Assembly (NCBI GenBank): GCA_037446155.1 | Contig: JBBIJE010000007.1 | Coordinates: 1,765 to 65,764, forward strand | Reading direction: 5' to 3' | Length of the DNA stretch: 64,000 nucleotides | Source of the DNA: Myxococcales bacterium | GTDB taxonomy: Bacteria; Desulfobacterota; Binatia; UTPRO1; JBBIJE01 | Shown: one piece after another, positions 69 to 23,379 of the stretch | How positions within the stretch are numbered: position 1 is the stretch's first letter | Layout: each line of letters starts with the position of its first letter | Notes under the pieces: generated by a model | The model's database searches: none | Told to the model about the DNA's origin: nothing | What the model saw: the letters and a program-made list of their open reading frames with translations, nothing else | Position numbers and translations under genes: made by a program

Positions 69-857
69 TTACGCCTCGTCGAGACCACGTGCAATACGAC
101 GTAGGGAGCGCGCCCTGCCTGACTCTTCGTCCACCTCGACTATGGCACCCTGCACCTGGCAGCGGCCAGCCGCCACCTCGAATTTGACCCTCATCTTGGT
201 CAGAAAGCGCTCGATCACCTGATCCCGCCTCACGCCGATGACCGAGTCCACGGGCCCGCACATACCGACATCGGTCATGTACGCCGTGCCGCCGGGAAGC
301 ACTCTCCCATCCGCGGTCTGCACGTGTGTGTGAGTGCCCAATACCGCAGATACACGCCCGTCGAGAAACCAGCCCATCGCAAGCTTCTCCGATGTCGCCT
401 CGGCGTGCATATCGACGACAATTACGGAGGCCTGCGACCTAAGCTTCGTCACCAACCGTTCAGCCACTTGAAAGGGGCAGTCCACGGCATCCATGAAAAC
501 CCGGCCACTCAAGTTGATGACACATACCGGCACGCCGCAACGACTCGGCTTCGTGGTGTAGCCGAACCCCGGCACTCCGGGCGGGTAGTTCGCAGGTCGG
601 AGCAAGACGTCGCTGTCGCGCATGTACGCTATGATCTCGGGTCGCTGCCATATATGGTTGCCGGAGGTAAGGAGATCCACACCCGCACCGAGAAGCTCCT
701 GCGCACCCCTGGGGTGCACTCCCTTACCGCCCGCGACATTCTCGCAATTGGCGATGGTGAAATGTATGCCCTCTTGTTCGATTAACGAGGGAAGCAGCCG
801 GGAGACGATCTCCCTGCCCGGCTTCCCCACGACATCACCCAGAAAAAGAATCTTCAT
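69..857 (-). CDS. ymdB: YmdB-like metallophosphoesterase (TIGR00282 family, 2',3'-cyclic nucleotide phosphodiesterase-like)
   Basis: 262-aa ORF starting MKILFLGDVVGKPGRE; calcineurin-like metallophosphoesterase motifs (GD..G, GNH). It lies immediately downstream of rny, as in the Bacillus rny-ymdB pair. Confidence 0.8.
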   Translation of the reverse strand: MKILFLGDVVGKPGREIVSRLLPSLIEQEGIHFTIANCENVAGGKGVHPRGAQELLGAGVDLLTSGNHIWQRPEIIAYMRDSDVLLRPANYPPGVPGFGYTTKPSRCGVPVCVINLSGRVFMDAVDCPFQVAERLVTKLRSQASVIVVDMHAEATSEKLAMGWFLDGRVSAVLGTHTHVQTADGRVLPGGTAYMTDVGMCGPVDSVIGVRRDQVIERFLTKMRVKFEVAAGRCQVQGAIVEVDEESGRARSLRRIARGLDEA

Positions 858-942
858 GGCGTCGCTCGAGCCGGCAAATCAGCGCCCGGCATCGGCGCCC
901 CAGAGATTGCCGACCAGCCCCGATGCCGGCCCGAGGCTTGCA

Positions 943-2502
943 TCAGTGGGCGTACTCGCTCGTGCGTAACTCTCTTATAACAGTGACCTTGATCTGGCCA
1001 GGATAGGTGAGCTCGCTCTCGATTTTCCTGGCCACGTCTCGCGCAAGCATGACCGACTCGTCGTCGGAAATCTCACTGGGGATGACGATGATCCGTACCT
1101 CGCGGCCTGCCTGTACCGCGAACGATTTCTCCACCCCCTTGTACGAATTGCTGATACGCTCCAGGTCCTCAAGGCGCTTGACGTAGCTTTCCAATACTTC
1201 TCGGCGGGCTCCCGGCCGTGCCCCAGAAAGGGCGTCCGCCGCATCCACGAGGGGAGCCAGTATGGTCTCTGCCTTCACTTCCTCGTGGTGGGCCGCGATA
1301 GCGTTGACTATCTTCGCGGCCTCTCCGCACCTTCGTGCGATATCGGCCCCGATGAGCGCGTGGGATCCCTCGACCTCGTGCGTCAGGGCCTTGCCAATGT
1401 CGTGTAACAGCGCAGCCCGTCGCGCCTGCTTCTCGTTTATTCCCAACTCCGCCGCCATCATACCGCAAATGAACGCCGCTTCTATCGAATGAGCCAGGAC
1501 ATTTTGCGCGTAACTGTACCGAAACTTGAGCATGCCGAGAAGCTTGATCAGTTCCGGGTGCAAGGCATGCACGCCTACCTCGAACATCGCCTTTTGGCCG
1601 GCCTCCCGGGCCTGCTCCTCTATATCCAGCTCGGCGCGCCGCACAACCTCCTCGATACGTCCCGGGTGGATGCGGCCATCGGAAATCAGGCGCTCGAGCG
1701 CCAGCCTTGCTATCTCTCTGCGAACCGGGTTATGACAGGAGAGGATCACAGCCTCTGGCGTATCGTCTATGATCAGATCCACGCCGGTTAAGGCCTCTAT
1801 CGCGCGGATGTTCCTCCCCTCCCGGCCGATTATGCGTCCCTTCATGTCGTCATTGGGAAGCTGGACCGTGGTCACTGTCCGCTCGGCCACGAACTCGCCG
1901 GCAAGCCGCTCGATAGCAATAGTTACTATCTTGCGGGCCTTGCGATCCGCTTCGGCCTTGGCTTCCTCCTCCACTTGGCGAATCCGCTTGGCTGCTTCGT
2001 GTTTGGCCTCGTCGACCATCTGCTCTCGCAACATCGCCCGGGCTTCTTCCCTGGTCATCCCGGCGATGCGTTCCAACTGCCGCCTTGTCTCGTCAATCGC
2101 GGCTCGATACTCCTCCTCGCGAGCCGCCAGCCCCCGCTCTCTCTCTCGCAAGGCTTGCTCCTTGCGCCCGATCTCTCCCTCGCGCCGTTCCACGGCTTGC
2201 AGCTTGCGCTCGAGGGTCTCCTCTCGTCCACGCGCTCTCTTTTCCGCGATCTGAAGCTCGCGCTTTTGCTCTCTAAGCTCCCTCTCGATCTCCGCTCGCG
2301 CTCGAAGTATCTCCTCCTTAGCTTGGACCTCCGATTCTTTTCTCAGTGCGCTGGCCTCTTTCTTCGCTTCCTCCAATATGCGCTTGGCAGTCTCCTCGGC
2401 CGCTGCGATTCGGCTGCGCCCCCGCCACGCTCTCACGCACTCGACGACGACGTAGAGCAGAGCGGCCAAACCGAGCGCCGTAGTGATGCTCCAAAGTCCC
2501 AC
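943..2502 (-). CDS. rny: Ribonuclease Y
   Basis: 519 aa. N-terminal TM helix, long charged coiled-coil, KH domain ([23 protein letters not shown]) and HD domain (LLHDIGKA...). This architecture is diagnostic of RNase Y. Confidence 0.9.
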
Positions 2503-17386: not shown

Positions 17387-20300
17387 ATGGTCTTTGGGCC
17401 TGTGGTACTTTTTGCGCTTTTTGCCACCGCCGCGATGCCGTCTGGTGCCGCGGCATCGGTTTGCGACGGCGCGCCCGCCTGCGTACCGGGCGGGGGGAGC
17501 ACGAGGACCGACTGCCTCGTCGAATGGCAAGTATTGCCTACACCGCCGCCTTCGAATGGCTTTCCCTCGGCCAGGATCGACTGCGTGGACGGGACCTCTT
17601 GCGACGGTGACGGGAGCGCCAACGGCGAGTGTTTGGTGTCGATAAATATCTGCATCAACAACGTCGATTCACGCTTGCCTGATTGCAACGCGGCCACGCT
17701 CGGCTTGCCGAAACTGGAGATCGCCTCGGTACAGTTGGCTAAACCACTGAAGGTGAAGCGCGACGGCTTCGACGCCGCCAACAAAGCGGCAATCATAGAA
17801 GCGCTTCGCAGCCTCAATGTACCCGTTACGGCGCGCGAGCTCGGGCTCTTGAGCTCGGGCGGCGGGAGTGCCGAGCAGGCCTGCACCGGCACGCCCCTGC
17901 GCTTTCGGGTTCCCTTGACGATACACCGGGGCGCGGTGACCAAGAGCCGAAAGACCATCAAGATTTTAGCCACTACCCCCCCGCCAGCGGGCGGCACCAA
18001 AGGCATCTTCGACCGGGACCGTCTCAAAATAAGTTGTCTTCCCAACCCGGCACCCCCATCGGTCGCCACCCCCCAACCGACCGGGATCGGCCCGAGTATC
18101 GTAAGCAACGCTACCGATCATCCCGTTCAAATCGAGGGGAGCGCGCTAGCGTCGGGGACGAGGCTCGTTTTGCAAAACCAACAGGGGAAGGAGTTGATGT
18201 GGCTCCCCACGGTCCACATCTCCGATTCTCTTTTGGCTGCGCTGGTCCCAGAGGGCTTTCCGGTTGCGGGAACGACGGCGCGACCGGAAGTGGAGGAGCT
18301 TCGAGCGGTGCTTGTTCACCCCTATCTGGCCGGTGTCGCGCCCGTCGTGCCGAACCGATTCACGGCGGTCGACGACCTGAATTTTACCAACCCCAACTCC
18401 GCAGCTCTCTCCCCCGACCAGAGCAAACTTTACATAACGAGCCCGCAAACGGACGAAGTTTGGGTGTACGACACCGCCGCCAACGCTTTCATCGACCAGG
18501 ACCCGCAGGAGCGGGGAGTTCAAGGGATACCGGTCGGCGACAACCCCTTTCACGTCGAGACTCTGAACCTCGGTGGCGGCAGCGGGTTGATTTGGGTGGT
18601 GAACCGGTTCTCGGATTTCCTCTCTCTGATCGACCCGGTGACCGACCGGGTGGTCGCCAGCGTCCCGGTTCTGAAAATGGCCCAGGAGGTGGAATTCGAC
18701 AACTCCGGGACGCGAGCGTTCGTGACCAACCAAAACCGCAACCTCGTCCAGGTCTTCGACATCTCCGGAAATCCCGAGGCACCGGTAGAGATCACCCGTG
18801 TCGAGGTCGGCATGAGCCCGCGAGGGATGGCGATAAATTCATCCGACACCAAGCTCTACGTCACAAACATCCAGACTGCCGACGTTAGCGTAATCGACGT
18901 GGACGAACAGAGCCCGACCGTCTACACCCTGCGCTCTACTCCAACGGGAATATCCATCCAGCCACGAGCCGGCGACGACATCGTAGGAGGCTTCGCGGAT
19001 GGCTGGGAGGCGTACATCATCGGAGGGCGAGCTCCGAGGGGGGTCGCTTACAGCCGCGCGCTCGACCACGTGTTCGTGAGCAGTGTGGGGCCGAACATCG
19101 GTCCCCGTCCGGGCGTGACCCCCGGTAGCATCAACGGCACGATCATGCACCCCGTGATCACCGTAATCGATGCGAGCACCGACGCGATAGTTCGCCATAT
19201 AGCCATCGAAGGGACCGATCCCGAGCAGATCGCCATCGATGACGACGCGCGACTACTCTACGTTGCCTGCCAAGGCTCGGGGCAGATAAGCGTCCTCGAC
19301 CTGAACCTCGCCACCGGCTCCGCCGCGCAAGCGAACGCTGCGGAGGTGGCGGTAATAGAACTCCCTCTCGCGCCGGGCAGCCCGACGCTGAGCCCACCGA
19401 TTTCCGTGACAGGGGATTACGGAGAGCGGCGCTGCGGTGGTGGCACGAACAATCGCCTACCCTGCCAGCAGGCCGCCGACTGCCCCGGAAGCCCGCTCGG
19501 CGAGCTGGCCTGCCGGCAAAACAATCCGGTCGGGCTGCACAACGGGCCGCGCGGAATAGCCATCGCCCAAGGCGGAAACCCGCTCTACGCCGTAAATCAG
19601 TTCACGCTGAGCGTAACCGAGATCGATACTAGCCTAGCGCCCAGTTTTGCAACCTCTGTGCCGGTCGTGTTCGGCGAGGGCGGCTTTGTCGAAAGGCTCA
19701 GACGGCTGGGACAGATTGATTTCTTTACCGATTTGCGGAACTCCAACGTGAGCTGCGCTACCTGTCATATCGACGACGGCCAGGATGGCCTCATTCATGA
19801 AGCCGATGTCGTCGGGCCGCGCTTGAGACGTGTCCTTTCGGTGCGAAATACCCGCGACATACCGCCGCTTCTACAGGATCAGCTCGTCCCCGATCTCAGG
19901 GCTTTCGTCGATCTCGTGGTACACCTGGAGCGGGACGTACCGGATGCGCAGGTGTGCCTGCCATGTACCAACTTGGGTTGCCTGTTCGACGGCTGCTTTC
20001 TCACGAGCGACCCGGACATGGAAGCCAACAAGGCGTACGTCGAGGACGTGGCGTTTTTCCCCAACCCGAACCTCAACCCTGACGGAAGTCTCTCGACCAG
20101 CGTTCCCTTGCCCGACGGAGGCACGGGCAACGCCGTATCGGGGGCCACCATCTTCGACACGCTAAACTGCGCGAATTGCCATCCCGGGCCTCTCTACACC
20201 ATCGACCAATTCCAGCCGACCGTCGTGAACTTCAGCGACCTCGTGCGAGGCGTCCGCATGCGGGGCGTGGGCACGCCCATCCACCAGTCGCTTCGCGACA

Positions 20301-20875
20301 TGTGCCAAGACGACACGCGCCCGGTCCCGAAACAGGGGGCGTTTTGCGTGGGAGGAGCCAACGCGGGGCTGCCTTGTACCGAGACGAGTGCGTGCCCCGG
20401 TGGAAGCTGCGAGGGAACGTGCGTGGGCGGGACGAACAACGGGCTGCCCTGTTTGACAGATGCCGATTGCCCGGGCGGGCCGCCGAGCAATCCCGCCAGA
20501 TGCGGCCACGAGGGATTCGGGGTGCCCACGCTACGCGGCATCTGGGACTCCTTTCCCTTGCTGCTTAGCGGCTCCGCTGGCCTCGGCATCTCTCCGGGCG
20601 CCGAGCCAGCGGTAACCTGCACCCGAGGGTCCCGAGCCGGCCTGCCCTGTTCGGACGACTCCGATTGTCCCGGTGGGGAGTGCCTTTGCAGCGACCTCGC
20701 TAATCCCGCCAACCCCTCAGGCGTGGCAGTCCCCGAGCGACACCAGGTCATGACGGAGCGCAACGCACTTCGCTCGGTGCTTACGGCGAACAATCCCGTC
20801 GGCGCCCACGGCAACACGGCTGGCCTGACCGCCGAGGAGCTCAACGACCTCATGGCGTTTATTCTGTCGCTCTAA
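17387..20875 (+). CDS. Large secreted multidomain protein: Cys-rich N-terminal region + YVTN-type beta-propeller repeats + di-haem cytochrome c peroxidase/MauG-like domain interrupted by four Cys-rich repeats
   Basis: 1162 aa. Signal peptide MVFGPVVLFALFATAAMPSGAAAS. Repeated LYVTN/VYD propeller blades (LYITSPQTDEVWVYD, AFVTNQNRNLVQVFD, LYVTNIQTADVSVID, LLYVACQGSGQISVLD, LYAVNQFTLSVTEID). Two CxxCH haem sites (CATCH, CANCH) plus GVPTLRGIWDS and a C-terminal LTAEELNDLMAFILSL typical of CCP/MauG. Four copies of C-x-G-G-x-N-x-G-L-P-C-x4-D-C-P-G-G-x(n)-C. Confidence 0.7.
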   Translation: MVFGPVVLFALFATAAMPSGAAASVCDGAPACVPGGGSTRTDCLVEWQVLPTPPPSNGFPSARIDCVDGTSCDGDGSANGECLVSINICINNVDSRLPDCNAATLGLPKLEIASVQLAKPLKVKRDGFDAANKAAIIEALRSLNVPVTARELGLLSSGGGSAEQACTGTPLRFRVPLTIHRGAVTKSRKTIKILATTPPPAGGTKGIFDRDRLKISCLPNPAPPSVATPQPTGIGPSIVSNATDHPVQIEGSALASGTRLVLQNQQGKELMWLPTVHISDSLLAALVPEGFPVAGTTARPEVEELRAVLVHPYLAGVAPVVPNRFTAVDDLNFTNPNSAALSPDQSKLYITSPQTDEVWVYDTAANAFIDQDPQERGVQGIPVGDNPFHVETLNLGGGSGLIWVVNRFSDFLSLIDPVTDRVVASVPVLKMAQEVEFDNSGTRAFVTNQNRNLVQVFDISGNPEAPVEITRVEVGMSPRGMAINSSDTKLYVTNIQTADVSVIDVDEQSPTVYTLRSTPTGISIQPRAGDDIVGGFADGWEAYIIGGRAPRGVAYSRALDHVFVSSVGPNIGPRPGVTPGSINGTIMHPVITVIDASTDAIVRHIAIEGTDPEQIAIDDDARLLYVACQGSGQISVLDLNLATGSAAQANAAEVAVIELPLAPGSPTLSPPISVTGDYGERRCGGGTNNRLPCQQAADCPGSPLGELACRQNNPVGLHNGPRGIAIAQGGNPLYAVNQFTLSVTEIDTSLAPSFATSVPVVFGEGGFVERLRRLGQIDFFTDLRNSNVSCATCHIDDGQDGLIHEADVVGPRLRRVLSVRNTRDIPPLLQDQLVPDLRAFVDLVVHLERDVPDAQVCLPCTNLGCLFDGCFLTSDPDMEANKAYVEDVAFFPNPNLNPDGSLSTSVPLPDGGTGNAVSGATIFDTLNCANCHPGPLYTIDQFQPTVVNFSDLVRGVRMRGVGTPIHQSLRDMCQDDTRPVPKQGAFCVGGANAGLPCTETSACPGGSCEGTCVGGTNNGLPCLTDADCPGGPPSNPARCGHEGFGVPTLRGIWDSFPLLLSGSAGLGISPGAEPAVTCTRGSRAGLPCSDDSDCPGGECLCSDLANPANPSGVAVPERHQVMTERNALRSVLTANNPVGAHGNTAGLTAEELNDLMAFILSL

Positions 20876-21021
20876 GGTCGATTCGAGGGCGGAAAAGCCA
20901 ACGCCGGGAACGATGTCGCCGAGCTGGGCGGATCGGTTCGAGTTTGACTGAAGGCAACGCGCACTCTAATTCATGGGGACGAAGGCACGTGGTCTGCAAA
21001 CGAGGAGAAGCGGGGCTTACC

Positions 21022-21651
21022 ATGGGCGGGATTGTCCTCGCCGGCGGCCGCAGTAAGCGCATGGGATCGGCCAAGGAATGGCTCGACTTCGCCGGCGTTC
21101 CCATGTTACGGCGCGTCGTGGAGACCGTGGCTTCGCAGACCGCGCCGGTTGCGGTCGCAAGGAGCAAGGGCCAGGCGCTTCCACCCCTTCCCGCCGACAT
21201 CATCCTGACGGAGGATGAGGTGGACGACTGTGGGCCTCTCGGAGGGCTTGCGGCCGGGCTGGCGGCTCTAGAGGGTGCCGCCGATGCGGTTTTTCTTTGT
21301 TCCTGCGATGTACCGCTGCTTAAACCGGCCTTTATCCGCCTAGTGGCCCAGTCGCTCGGTGACTACGACATCGCCGTTCCGTGGGTCGCGGGACGGTACC
21401 ACCCTCTGGCTGCCGCCTACCGAGGCCGGTTGCTTCCGGTAGCGAGGAAACTCTTGGCGGCGGGCGAGCGCAGAATGCACTTCCTTTTCCCCGAAGCCCG
21501 CGTTAGGGTCTTGGAGCCCCCCCTCTTGCGCTCGGCCGACAGCGCTCTTTACTCGCTTCTGAACTGCAATACGAAAGAGGAATACCGGGAGCTTCTTCGG
21601 CTCTTCGACACCATCGGTGAAACGACACGAATCAGCGGCGAGGCGAGTTAG
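21022..21651 (+). CDS. mobA: Molybdenum cofactor guanylyltransferase MobA
   Basis: GIVLAGGRSKRMG motif and the LxxDxP region of MobA. The true start is likely the MGGIVLAGG methionine; the track ORF begins at 20944. Confidence 0.8.
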   Translation: MGGIVLAGGRSKRMGSAKEWLDFAGVPMLRRVVETVASQTAPVAVARSKGQALPPLPADIILTEDEVDDCGPLGGLAAGLAALEGAADAVFLCSCDVPLLKPAFIRLVAQSLGDYDIAVPWVAGRYHPLAAAYRGRLLPVARKLLAAGERRMHFLFPEARVRVLEPPLLRSADSALYSLLNCNTKEEYRELLRLFDTIGETTRISGEAS

Positions 21652-21673
21652 GTAACCAACGCAGCCGGCAGAC

Positions 21674-22660
21674 ATGACCAGATCCCTTTTCCGGCAAACG
21701 ATCCCCCGCCAGCATGGAGCATGGTCGATCCTGGCCGCCGCCGCGGCACTGGGAATGGTCGCGGGAGGCGGCTTGCGGGTACAGGGCGCGCTGTTCGCTG
21801 TGTGCGTCGTCCTGGGATTTTTCGCCCAGCACACCGGCGAGCTTTGGCTCAAGTTTTCAGGCTCAACGAACAGGCGAAGGGAGATCGGGTACCTTCTGCT
21901 GGCGTATGCCTTGACCTTTCTCCTCTGCGGCGCGATGTTGCTCTTCAAGTACGAGCTCTGGGGCCTATTACCCTTGGCTGGACTGGCATCTGGGCTGGTG
22001 GCCCTCTCCCTCACTCTATCCAAGGTCCGCAAGGCAAGAACCGTAGTCGGGGAGATCGTGAACGTCTTAGCTCTCACTCTGGTCCTTCCCGCCGCCGCCT
22101 ACTGTGCAGCCGGGAGCTACGTTTACCCTACTGTGGGCCTAACGCTCATGGCAGCGATTTTTTTCTGCGCAAGCATATTCCATGTCCGGTACTTGGTGCG
22201 TGGAGGCCGCCGCCAGGCCGGATCGGCTCCCGAGCGGTTGCGGGCCGCGACGCCCTCGCTCGCCTATCACGCTCTCGGCCTGGTCGCTGCCGGTGCGCTC
22301 GCCGCCTTCGGACTTCTCCCCATAGCAGCGCCACTCGCTCTTCTCCCGGTGACGCTCAAAGCTCTCCGGGCCGCAGCGATGCCGGCCCGCGGACCCACTC
22401 CGATCAGAACGATCGGGTATGTGGAACTCGCCCATACGATCGTCTTCGTCTTGCTGGCGGCGCTGTTGGCGGTACCGAGGTCTGGGAGGGGTTGCCATAC
22501 AATTGAGAATGAGTTTCAATTGCGCCTGTGCCGTTACTCTGCTCGAAGGCCGGCCCGCCCCGCCCCGCCGCCATCCCGCGCGGGATGGGTGGACCTTCAC
22601 CTCGACGCAACTTCGATTCTCTCGCCGCACTCTGTAGCCGCAGCGCCCGGGCAGCCCTAG
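21674..22660 (+). CDS. YwiC-like family polytopic membrane protein
   Basis: Starts with the family-typical PRQHGAWSILAAAAALG motif and has ~8 predicted TM helices. The last ~60 codons look non-membrane and low-complexity, and overlap the next gene in another frame, so the true stop/start here is uncertain. Confidence 0.5.
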   Translation: MTRSLFRQTIPRQHGAWSILAAAAALGMVAGGGLRVQGALFAVCVVLGFFAQHTGELWLKFSGSTNRRREIGYLLLAYALTFLLCGAMLLFKYELWGLLPLAGLASGLVALSLTLSKVRKARTVVGEIVNVLALTLVLPAAAYCAAGSYVYPTVGLTLMAAIFFCASIFHVRYLVRGGRRQAGSAPERLRAATPSLAYHALGLVAAGALAAFGLLPIAAPLALLPVTLKALRAAAMPARGPTPIRTIGYVELAHTIVFVLLAALLAVPRSGRGCHTIENEFQLRLCRYSARRPARPAPPPSRAGWVDLHLDATSILSPHSVAAAPGQP

Positions 22661-23379
22661 CTCTCGTGATCATTGGGTTCGACTGCGCTTTTGCTTACCG
22701 CCCCCTGGCGACCGAGGACGCAGGAGTCGCCGGTCGGCACAGGACCGAGGCGGAGGCAAGCTCGCAGTTCGTCGTCTGGCCTGACGGTACACGAGAGGGG
22801 CAGTTCTTGGCGGTGGGTATCGTAGGCTTGACGGAGCGGATCGAGGTCTCGCTCGAGCTACCCTATCTTTTGCACGATTCGCAGAGAGAAGGCGTGGCGA
22901 GTGGTCTAGGCGACCTCCAGATCGGGGGAAAGCTCTCGCTCGCCGGCGAGGTCCCCCCTTTTCCGGCTTTGGCCCTGCGCGGTACGGTAAAAACTGCCAC
23001 CGCAGACGCGGGCGATGGGCTTGGTTCTGGCGGCACGGACTACCAGCTCCTGGCGGTAGCGTCGAAACCCACAGGCCCCGTTTCCTGCCACGCGATGGGC
23101 GGTGTGACGCTTGTCGAGATCGAAGGTGGAAAAACCGAGCCGGCTATCCCGTACGGAGTGGCGGCAGACTGGCGAGTGCACGAGCGGCTTCACCTCGTGA
23201 CCGAGGTGGCCGGACACCGGCACCCAGACAAAGGGTTCGGCCAGGATCCGGCGCTCCTGTCGGTTGGAATGATCCTGCCCATGGGTTCGATGGTCTCCGT
23301 CGATGCGGCGGTTGGGACGGGCTTGACGAAGCACGCTCCGGACGTGGCTCTCGTCCTGGGCGCAACGATTTTCTTCTGA
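22528..23379 (+). CDS. Outer-membrane beta-barrel protein (MetA-pathway/transporter-like OMP family)
   Basis: Signal-peptide-like ARAALALVIIGFDCAFA, alternating amphipathic beta-strands, GLGDLQIGGK motif, C-terminal ...ALVLGATIFF (terminal Phe is an OMP signature). The start is probably downstream of 22528. Confidence 0.45.
   Translation: MPLLCSKAGPPRPAAIPRGMGGPSPRRNFDSLAALCSRSARAALALVIIGFDCAFAYRPLATEDAGVAGRHRTEAEASSQFVVWPDGTREGQFLAVGIVGLTERIEVSLELPYLLHDSQREGVASGLGDLQIGGKLSLAGEVPPFPALALRGTVKTATADAGDGLGSGGTDYQLLAVASKPTGPVSCHAMGGVTLVEIEGGKTEPAIPYGVAADWRVHERLHLVTEVAGHRHPDKGFGQDPALLSVGMILPMGSMVSVDAAVGTGLTKHAPDVALVLGATIFF

Follow-up and report, generated by a model that had tools for sequence, protein, structure and literature searches.

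A short four-cysteine module present in four copies in a hydrazine synthase-like propeller/di-haem protein of a Binatia-type bacterium

The DNA analysed here (the window) is a 64,000-nucleotide stretch of contig JBBIJE010000007.1 from the assembly GCA_037446155.1, which is deposited as a Myxococcales bacterium and placed in the Binatia by GTDB. It contains a long open reading frame (ORF), hereafter the host ORF, which encodes a multidomain protein with four copies of a short cysteine-rich module (Table 1). The ORFs overlapping it on the opposite strand and in the other frames are the usual by-products of DNA with 62–64% GC. All four peptides listed in the original prediction, which had been made from the sequence without database searches, were found exactly in the host ORF, and their arrangement was also as described, with one copy upstream of the first haem motif (CATCH, aa 790) and three downstream of the second one (CANCH, aa 928). 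The copies are 22–29 residues long, contain four cysteines each and share the consensus C-x-G-G-x-N-x-G-x-x-C-x2-D-x-D-C-P-G-G-x-C. The pattern first proposed for them holds as a consensus but not as a strict match, since copies 1, 2 and 4 deviate from it and the length of the last loop ranges between 4 and 10 residues. In copy 1, R replaces the second G (N-N-R) and S is found in P-G-S, copy 2 has A in place of the D before the third cysteine (position 16), and copy 4 has R for both G3 and N6. The spacing C-x9-C-x5-C was seen in all four copies. Their last loop is shortest in copies 2 and 4 (4 residues each) and longer in copy 1 (9) and copy 3 (10). Copies 2 and 3 overlap at a common Cys-containing boundary linker.

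Table 1. Features of the host ORF; nucleotide positions refer to the window, amino acid positions to the encoded protein, and bit scores to the HMM built from foreign copies of the module
Feature	Position (nt)	Position (aa)	Strand	Basis or remark
Host ORF	17387..20875		+	1162 aa; signal peptide, N-terminal Cys-rich region, IPT-like stretch, YVTN beta-propeller, di-haem c domain
Probable Sec signal peptide, MVFGPVVLFALFATAAMPSGAAAS	17387..17458		+	predicted from the sequence; Kyte-Doolittle maximum 2.63
YVTN/lactonase-type beta-propeller, related to hydrazine synthase beta	18374..19636	~330-750	+	1l0q_A, E=4.8e-45; 5c2v_B, E=6e-29
Module copy 1, RCGGGTNNRLPCQQAADCPGSPLGELAC	19430..19513	682-709	+	inside the propeller, before the last blade; 20.1 bits; four Cys family-invariant
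Last propeller blade, NNPVGLHNGPRGIAIAQGGNPLYAVNQFTLSVTEIDT, after copy 1	19520..19636	~712-750	+	aligned to the blades of 1l0q_A and the final blade of 5c2v_B
Haem c motif 1, CATCH	19754..19768	790-794	+	family-invariant; aligned to CASCH of hydrazine synthase gamma (haem gamma-I)
Cys860, in CLPC	19964..19966	860	+	HMM-aligned to Cys165 of hydrazine synthase gamma; conserved in at least 90% of the family; alignment gappy here
Haem c motif 2, CANCH	20168..20182	928-932	+	motif location and family alignment
Module copy 2	20342..20422	986-1012	+	28.9 bits; most homologues do not have it
Module copy 3, tandem to copy 2	20417..20503	1011-1039	+	34.0 bits
GFxVPTLRGIWDxFPLLxSGSAG motif of the CCP/hydrazine synthase gamma superfamily, between copies 3 and 4	20513..20581		+	invariant columns; aligned to FDTPTLRDIYASGTYFHDGGA of 5c2v_C
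Module copy 4, an expanded conserved C-T-x-G-x-x-G-C-C loop	20615..20689	1077-1101	+	25.4 bits

To avoid circularity, a hidden Markov model (HMM) was made from 342 unique 22-mers taken exclusively from other proteins, and it was run on the 903 six-frame ORFs of the window. This foreign-only HMM matched the host ORF with E=8.5e-22 in four domains (bit scores in Table 1), so the four copies are true members of a widespread family. The next best ORF of the window had E=1.5, that is, no other gene of the window carries the module, and in eight related loci it was confined to the orthologous genes. The DNA sequences of the copies are only 64–76% identical and differ at synonymous sites, and the copies are not recent duplicates. 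Each module is 70–83% identical to its orthologous copy in the homologue P0002, compared with 66% for the whole protein; this higher identity, despite the divergence of the DNA copies from each other, indicates that the modules are under purifying selection. The high GC content of the gene (62–64%), which enriches Gly, Pro and Ala codons, and the adjacency of copies 2 and 3 would fit an origin of the four copies by chance, by compositional bias or by mere local duplication. However, this explanation is refuted by the match of the foreign-only HMM together with the 539 carrier clusters found elsewhere (see below), and the retention of the copies in orthologues of 66% identity and the 64–76% DNA identity among the copies also argue against it; its probability is negligible.

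The distribution of the module was examined with a profile (A2) composed of 12 aligned copies from the host and its homologues P0002, P0003 and P0005, which was searched against 1.84 billion representative proteins, with clusters defined at 50% identity. At E≤1e-3 this exhaustive search retrieved 539 representatives, of which 69 also reached ≤1e-10 and 5 reached ≤1e-30; a single protein could contain as many as 14 matched stretches. Recurrence outside the host protein had been proposed as the test that distinguishes a repeat family from a purely local duplication, and these 539 clusters speak clearly for the former. Among the best 149 matches clean copies can be recognized (e.g., CVGGANDGDPCIRDSQCPGGTC), tandem arrangement is common, and the linkers are 3–5 residues long. 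The consensus of 336 canonical 22-mers is C-[VSA]-G(84%)-G(100%)-x-N(63%)-[DA]-G(90%)-x-[PA]-C-x-x-D(48%)-[SA]-[DE](73%)-C-P(79%)-G(67%)-G(75%)-x-C, which corresponds to a module of ~22 residues with the spacing C-x9-C-x5-C-x4(-10)-C. The last loop of the foreign copies has four residues in 336 cases, five in 94 and six in 32. All four cysteines are present in each of the 424 full-length aligned foreign copies, thus co-loss is silent on which cysteines pair. Apart from the cysteines, conservation falls on Gly, Pro, Asn and Asp, as is typical of tight turns, and no hydrophobic core is apparent.

The named carriers are all annotated as hypothetical proteins and come from Ca. Binatia (GIW41070.1 and GIW41071.1), one Terriglobales metagenome-assembled genome (MAG) and one Phycisphaerae MAG. 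The domains accompanying the module are mutually unrelated (FG-GAP, reprolysin-type metallopeptidase, RCC1, various propellers, fn3, sulfatase and DUF7450), and a crude hydrophobicity heuristic found a signal-peptide-like N-terminus in 85 of the 120 carriers starting with Met. As the module occurs singly or in tandem (up to 14 copies) beside unrelated catalytic or adhesion domains, it behaves as a generic portable unit. The two Ca. Binatia proteins (P0055, GIW41071.1, with 14 module matches, and P0204, GIW41070.1) fall in one 90%-identity cluster and are encoded on the same 1.07-Mb contig under the consecutive locus tags KatS3mg076_1647 and _1648, which hints that module-rich paralogues have multiplied locally in the genomes of Binatia.

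For comparison with described families, the module copies of the window were scanned against Pfam-A (2025) and NCBIfam 20.0 down to E≤10, and no model reached its cut-off. Sub-threshold similarities were obtained with Nodulin_late (18 bits, cut-off 30.4), EB (14.2, cut-off 24.3), integrin EGF (17.3, cut-off 27), Squash (15.4, cut-off 22) and TIGR04201 (Myxo_Cys_RPT; 12.9–15.1, cut-off 25), and on the tandem at aa 981–1042 with DUF7107 (PF23416; 11.5 bits, E=0.39, cut-off 24.6), and TIGR02232 and DUF4215 did not match the repeat segments even at E≤10. Carriers with 8–14 canonical copies would be expected to accumulate score if a model described the repeat. In the ten best multi-copy carriers, NCBIfam gave a single sub-threshold match to TIGR04201 (17.6 bits), nine of the ten having no match at E≤0.01, and in Pfam P0057 alone passed the cut-off of DUF7107 (36.6 bits). 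Scanning of 104 carriers at E≤1e-3 yielded four matches to DUF7107, three to EB and two to Dickkopf_N.

TIGR04201 is also a Cys-rich repeat of ~22 residues, and the module half C-x-x-D-x-D-C-P-x-G-x-C aligns to its profile positions 5–17, but the profile leaves the first half of the module, C-x-G-G-x-N-x-G, uncovered. DUF7107 denotes a functionally uncharacterised Cys-rich domain, and its cut-off is exceeded in a single carrier (P0057 aa 559–602). On the tandem of the window it aligns out of register with the module, from C2 of one copy through to C3 of the following one, and 100 of the 104 carriers remain unmatched; DUF7107 may perhaps be a related six-Cys unit in a different phase. The Myxococcus repeat (TIGR02232/DUF4215, CGDG...EECDDGN), from which the module had been distinguished in the original prediction, shares the character of a Cys-rich repeat of secreted proteins but differs in Cys spacing and signature residues, and the distinction is borne out by the lack of any match at E≤10. 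A CGDG-type motif is present N-terminally in distant homologues of the host. The small eukaryotic disulfide modules (Dickkopf_N, EB, integrin EGF, late nodulin/NCR and squash inhibitor) are Gly-/Cys-rich extracellular repeats or inserts of 20–50 residues and gave E-values of 0.003–0.05; however, all stayed below the cut-offs (14–18 versus 22–30 bits) and matched only 2–3 of the 104 carriers, and the likeness appears to be one of composition and logic, without demonstrable homology. A PDB sequence search with the repeat profile returned only a spider venom peptide rich in disulfides, whose match was not significant (E=0.021), Foldseek comparison of the confident tandem model (see below) with the PDB gave no analogue, and no description of the module was found in the full-text literature on the repeat, DUF7107 and Cys-rich proteins of Binatia. 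Considering these results, the module seems to be an uncurated family of a familiar kind, the short Cys-rich extracytoplasmic repeat, every curated family tested failing the threshold. Thus, the repeat could not be assigned to a named family, as originally supposed, and since no curated family matched at significance and the module recurs widely, neither of the two outcomes that had been named as refuting the prediction, a match to a described family or confinement to this protein, was found.

The host protein was compared with known structures using its family profile. The best matches were the archaeal YVTN propeller 1l0q (E=8e-55) and the beta (5c2v_B, E=2e-31) and gamma (5c2v_C, E=7.8e-26) subunits of hydrazine synthase (HZS), followed by the bacterial cytochrome c peroxidases (CCPs) 3o5c (E=1.5e-8) and 1iqc (E=4.4e-6) and by MauG (E=4e-4). 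The propeller was also matched by Pfam Lactonase (E=2e-13) and TIGR02276 (E=5e-20), and the host ORF gave weak cytochrome c signals in Pfam/NCBIfam. Pfam CCP_MauG (PF03150) remained below its cut-off (12.4 bits, E=0.26, cut-off 25.6). The host nevertheless carries the hallmarks of the superfamily, namely two CxxCH motifs, a P-T/S-L-R-x motif (VPTLRG at aa 1046–1051) and a C-terminal amphipathic helix (...LNDLMAFILSL), and a relation to the CCP/MauG superfamily is supported by the profile search despite the failed Pfam cut-off. The term 'peroxidase-like', applied earlier to this domain, is therefore loose: the match to HZS-gamma is far better than that to the CCPs or MauG, and the haem domain is closer to HZS-gamma than to canonical CCP/MauG proteins. 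On this evidence the host, which is probably secreted, joins an HZS-beta-like propeller to a di-haem domain of the HZS-gamma/CCP type (18374–20875, + strand). The NCBIfam models of HZS beta, gamma and the beta-gamma fusion gave 22–40 bits against cut-offs of 560–1250, and neither NF052341 (22.4 bits, cut-off 625) nor NF052342 (39 bits, cut-off 1250) was reached. Foldseek comparison of a weak AlphaFold2 (AF2) model of aa 639–1162 found 5c2v_C as the best match, at a non-significant E=0.026.

The host resembles HZS in having a YVTN propeller followed by a domain with two CxxCH motifs. In the HMM alignment one of its cysteines falls opposite gamma-Cys165, which forms an unusual third covalent bond to haem gamma-I in HZS-gamma. 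The residue C126 of the HZS-gamma SEQRES was identified as Cys165 through the offset from C102/C105/H106 (PMC12758564), and Cys860 of the host is tentatively its equivalent, the alignment being gappy in this region. The host differs from HZS by its extra N-terminal Cys-rich/IPT-like region, and the Cys modules are absent from both HZS and the CCPs; the claim that canonical di-haem peroxidases have no such insert proved correct, as none is present at these sites, nor in HZS-gamma. The N-terminal Cys-rich region, CDGAPACVPGGGSTRTDCLVEW...CVDGTSCDGDGSANGECLVSINIC...C (17462–17686, aa 26–100), had no Pfam or NCBIfam match. It is kept in the window clade and in P0005 with C66 and C82 invariant, and in the Binatia clade its place is taken by a longer N-terminus that contains both a repeat region of the GDVGSN type and the motif CGDG...C-D-P-P-x-D. 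No homologue of the alpha subunit was detected among the neighbours examined (about 1–17 kb and 21–32 kb of the window), which are housekeeping or unrelated genes. The two genes that follow immediately after the host gene (20944–22660, + strand) encode an NTP transferase resembling MobA (E=4e-33) and a YwiC-like membrane protein (E=7e-18). A gene for a Phenol_MetA_deg-type outer-membrane protein is located within ~2 kb of the host (22528–23379, + strand) and also of its P0003 orthologue (L001 12078–13004, − strand); this is the only neighbour seen in common, the rest of the two neighbourhoods being different. Non-anammox relatives of the fused HZS beta-gamma subunit have recently been described from Planctomycetota and Desulfobacterota, and in other phyla an FG-GAP (CRTAC1-family) gene is reported to stand between the genes of the alpha and beta-gamma homologues (PMC12758564, published in 2025). 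FG-GAP proteins are also among the module carriers, which may be coincidence.

The insertion sites were compared in about 45 homologues, which are few and all derive from MAGs. The relatives labelled 'uncultured Myxococcales' are 60–66% identical to the host, while those labelled Ca. Binatia and one unclassified 'uncultured bacterium' MAG (L008) are 41–43% identical. The haem motifs, the PTLRG motif and the C-terminal motifs are invariant across the homologues, while the presence of the module varies at its three sites, A (copy 1), B (copies 2 and 3) and C (copy 4). As the blade NNPVGLHNGPRGIAIAQGGNPLYAVNQFTLSVTEIDT comes right after copy 1, this copy is inserted within the propeller, outside the haem domain. 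Every homologue having the region carries a Cys-rich element at site A, in which C683, C693, C699 and C709 are invariant. In most of them it is a six-Cys version, C-x9/10-C-x5-C-x2-C-x9/10-C-C, of which the module HMM matches the core only (10–14 bits), and profile–profile comparison with the module gave 86% probability over 15 columns; the canonical four-Cys copy (20–24 bits) is restricted to the window clade. The insertion loop of the sixth HZS-beta blade was considered as a counterpart of copy 1 and rejected, the CEAENGQVF region being aligned upstream of copy 1, to GPRxGVxQTGG.

Site B is situated between the conserved CQDxxRP and GFxVPTLRG motifs and coincides with a long unaligned variable loop of HZS-gamma. 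In 27 of the 32 homologues with a readable region it is an 8-residue loop, PTGxDGSx, whereas one module is present in P0005 and P0020, and two in the window protein, P0002 and P0003. At site C the majority of homologues have C-T-x-G-x-x-G-C-C and the window clade a full module; the expansion sits between the invariant C1078 and C1101, within a ~50-residue stretch that is absent from HZS-gamma. Thus, of the insertions into the peroxidase-like domain that were originally proposed, only copies 2 and 3 are a clean lineage-specific insert, while copy 1 belongs to the propeller and copy 4 is an expansion of an existing loop. No homologue departs from the haem, PTLRG and C-terminal motifs, which marks the modules as accessory elements, gained or elaborated step by step in variable loops. 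The homologues P0006–P0014 (e.g., from L005–L008) have two extra Cys elements between the IPT-like stretch and the propeller, …CTSNADCPPGAGTC… and …CDDGxxCxxxxxCxGxGxGAC…, which are absent from the window protein and match the second half of the module HMM only (5–12 bits), suggesting a family of related half-modules.

The same comparison bears on the possibility that the cysteines of the module form a redox-active thiol/disulfide relay or switch, which would communicate with the haems and regulate or join catalysis. Three modules cluster in the domain with haem 2, and the host family has further conserved odd cysteines (C973, C857/C860 and C1101). Yet most homologues keep every catalytic-looking motif without copies 2–3 and the full copy 4, the module occurs in many proteins that have no redox cofactor, and it contains no CxxC motif, which together make a redox role very improbable.

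We consider that each copy is best read as a disulfide-rich decoration, that is, a portable structural mini-domain held by two disulfides and decorating the surface loops of the enzyme, to which we assign a probability of about 0.6. The module would be built from Gly/Pro/Asn turns, almost without hydrophobic core or regular secondary structure, and its two disulfides would most probably form after export. The host has indicators of export in its signal-peptide-like N-terminus and its two c-type haem motifs, since attachment of c-type haem requires export. The AF2 model of the tandem copies 2 and 3 (mean predicted local distance difference test score, pLDDT, 88) is a compact coil with isolated beta-bridges at the first and last cysteines and short 3-residue turns, one of them after the second cysteine. 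The model of the whole domain (aa 639–1162) was poor (pLDDT 58.9), the modules still being among its better-predicted stretches. Arrays of such a generic unit could act as spacers or stalks, and units placed in loops could form a rigid loop or a knob on the surface. In the host lineage, modules have accumulated in three variable, presumably surface-exposed loops of a secreted beta-gamma-like enzyme: site A is an ancestral propeller site, the loop of site B following haem 2 grew from 8 residues to one module and then to two, and the C...CC loop of site C near the C-terminus was expanded to a full module. Their role would be structural rather than catalytic, as they may rigidify or enlarge the loops and possibly shape the access to the enzyme or its contacts with partners.

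Several points weigh against this interpretation. The four invariant cysteines could equally ligate a metal. The conserved N6, D14 and D/E16 might indicate binding of Ca2+ or a ligand instead of pure scaffolding. Because of the low pLDDT (58.9) of the whole-domain model, surface exposure and the distance from the haems are deduced from loop variability in the alignment alone, and the site of copy 1, being filled in every homologue, could be functionally required.

There are two further explanations. If each module were a Cys4 metal site, one ion (Zn, or a redox metal such as Fe or Cu) would be bound per copy by the four cysteines, whose invariance in 424 of 424 copies fits such a site, as do the C-P-G-G and C-x-G-G turns, which resemble zinc knuckles, and the AF2 model without regular secondary structure, which recalls small metal-stabilised folds. 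However, zinc ribbons and rubredoxins have paired CxxC/CPxC knuckles, which are missing from the spacing C-x9-C-x5-C-x4-C, the host and the other carriers appear to be exported to an oxidising compartment, in which sites of the Cys4 type are uncommon, neither Pfam nor NCBIfam gave a match to a metal-binding family, and the sole PDB sequence match, although non-significant (E=0.021), was the disulfide-rich venom peptide. We therefore regard a metal site as unlikely. By analogy with LDL-receptor class A or thrombospondin type 3 repeats, the module might alternatively be a disulfide-stabilised binding unit, whose Asn/Asp residues would bind Ca2+ and/or a ligand, such as a polysaccharide, a mineral surface or a partner protein, and so provide docking sites. 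The conservation of N6 (63%), D14 (48%) and D/E16 (73%), the co-occurrence with adhesion-type domains (FG-GAP, fn3, cohesin-like and reprolysin) and long tandem arrays, and the occupation of the copy 1 site in all homologues would agree with such a function. On the other hand, the acidic positions are only partly conserved, with Ala at position 16 of copy 2, no LDLa, TSP3 or Ca-binding model was matched, and beside the host there is no conserved partner gene but housekeeping neighbours; this reading is rather doubtful, though it deserves slightly more credit than a metal site. A bolder version, which we hold for a long shot, is that the module is a functional Cys4 unit (metal or redox disulfide) grafted onto extracytoplasmic enzymes by uncultured Binatia-type bacteria, the three copies around haem 2 forming an electron- or partner-docking cap in place of the missing alpha-type subunit. 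If this were true, the module would be a new class of portable redox or docking domain.

The findings overturn nothing in current understanding. Their value for annotation is that at least 539 clusters (50% identity) carry a module that has no Pfam-A or NCBIfam model, and a curated model would flag exported disulfide-rich proteins and aid the definition of domain boundaries in the proteomes of Binatia-type and other MAGs. The host family displays the stepwise accretion of a mini-domain in an enzyme loop, with 0, 1 or 2 copies at one site, which can inform ideas on loop engineering and on the accretion of domains. It also extends the non-anammox HZS beta-gamma homologues to MAGs of Binatia and 'Myxococcales', and the host enzyme itself, an HZS-beta-gamma-like fusion of Binatia-type bacteria with C860 aligned to gamma-Cys165, may prove to be more interesting biology than the modules that it carries.

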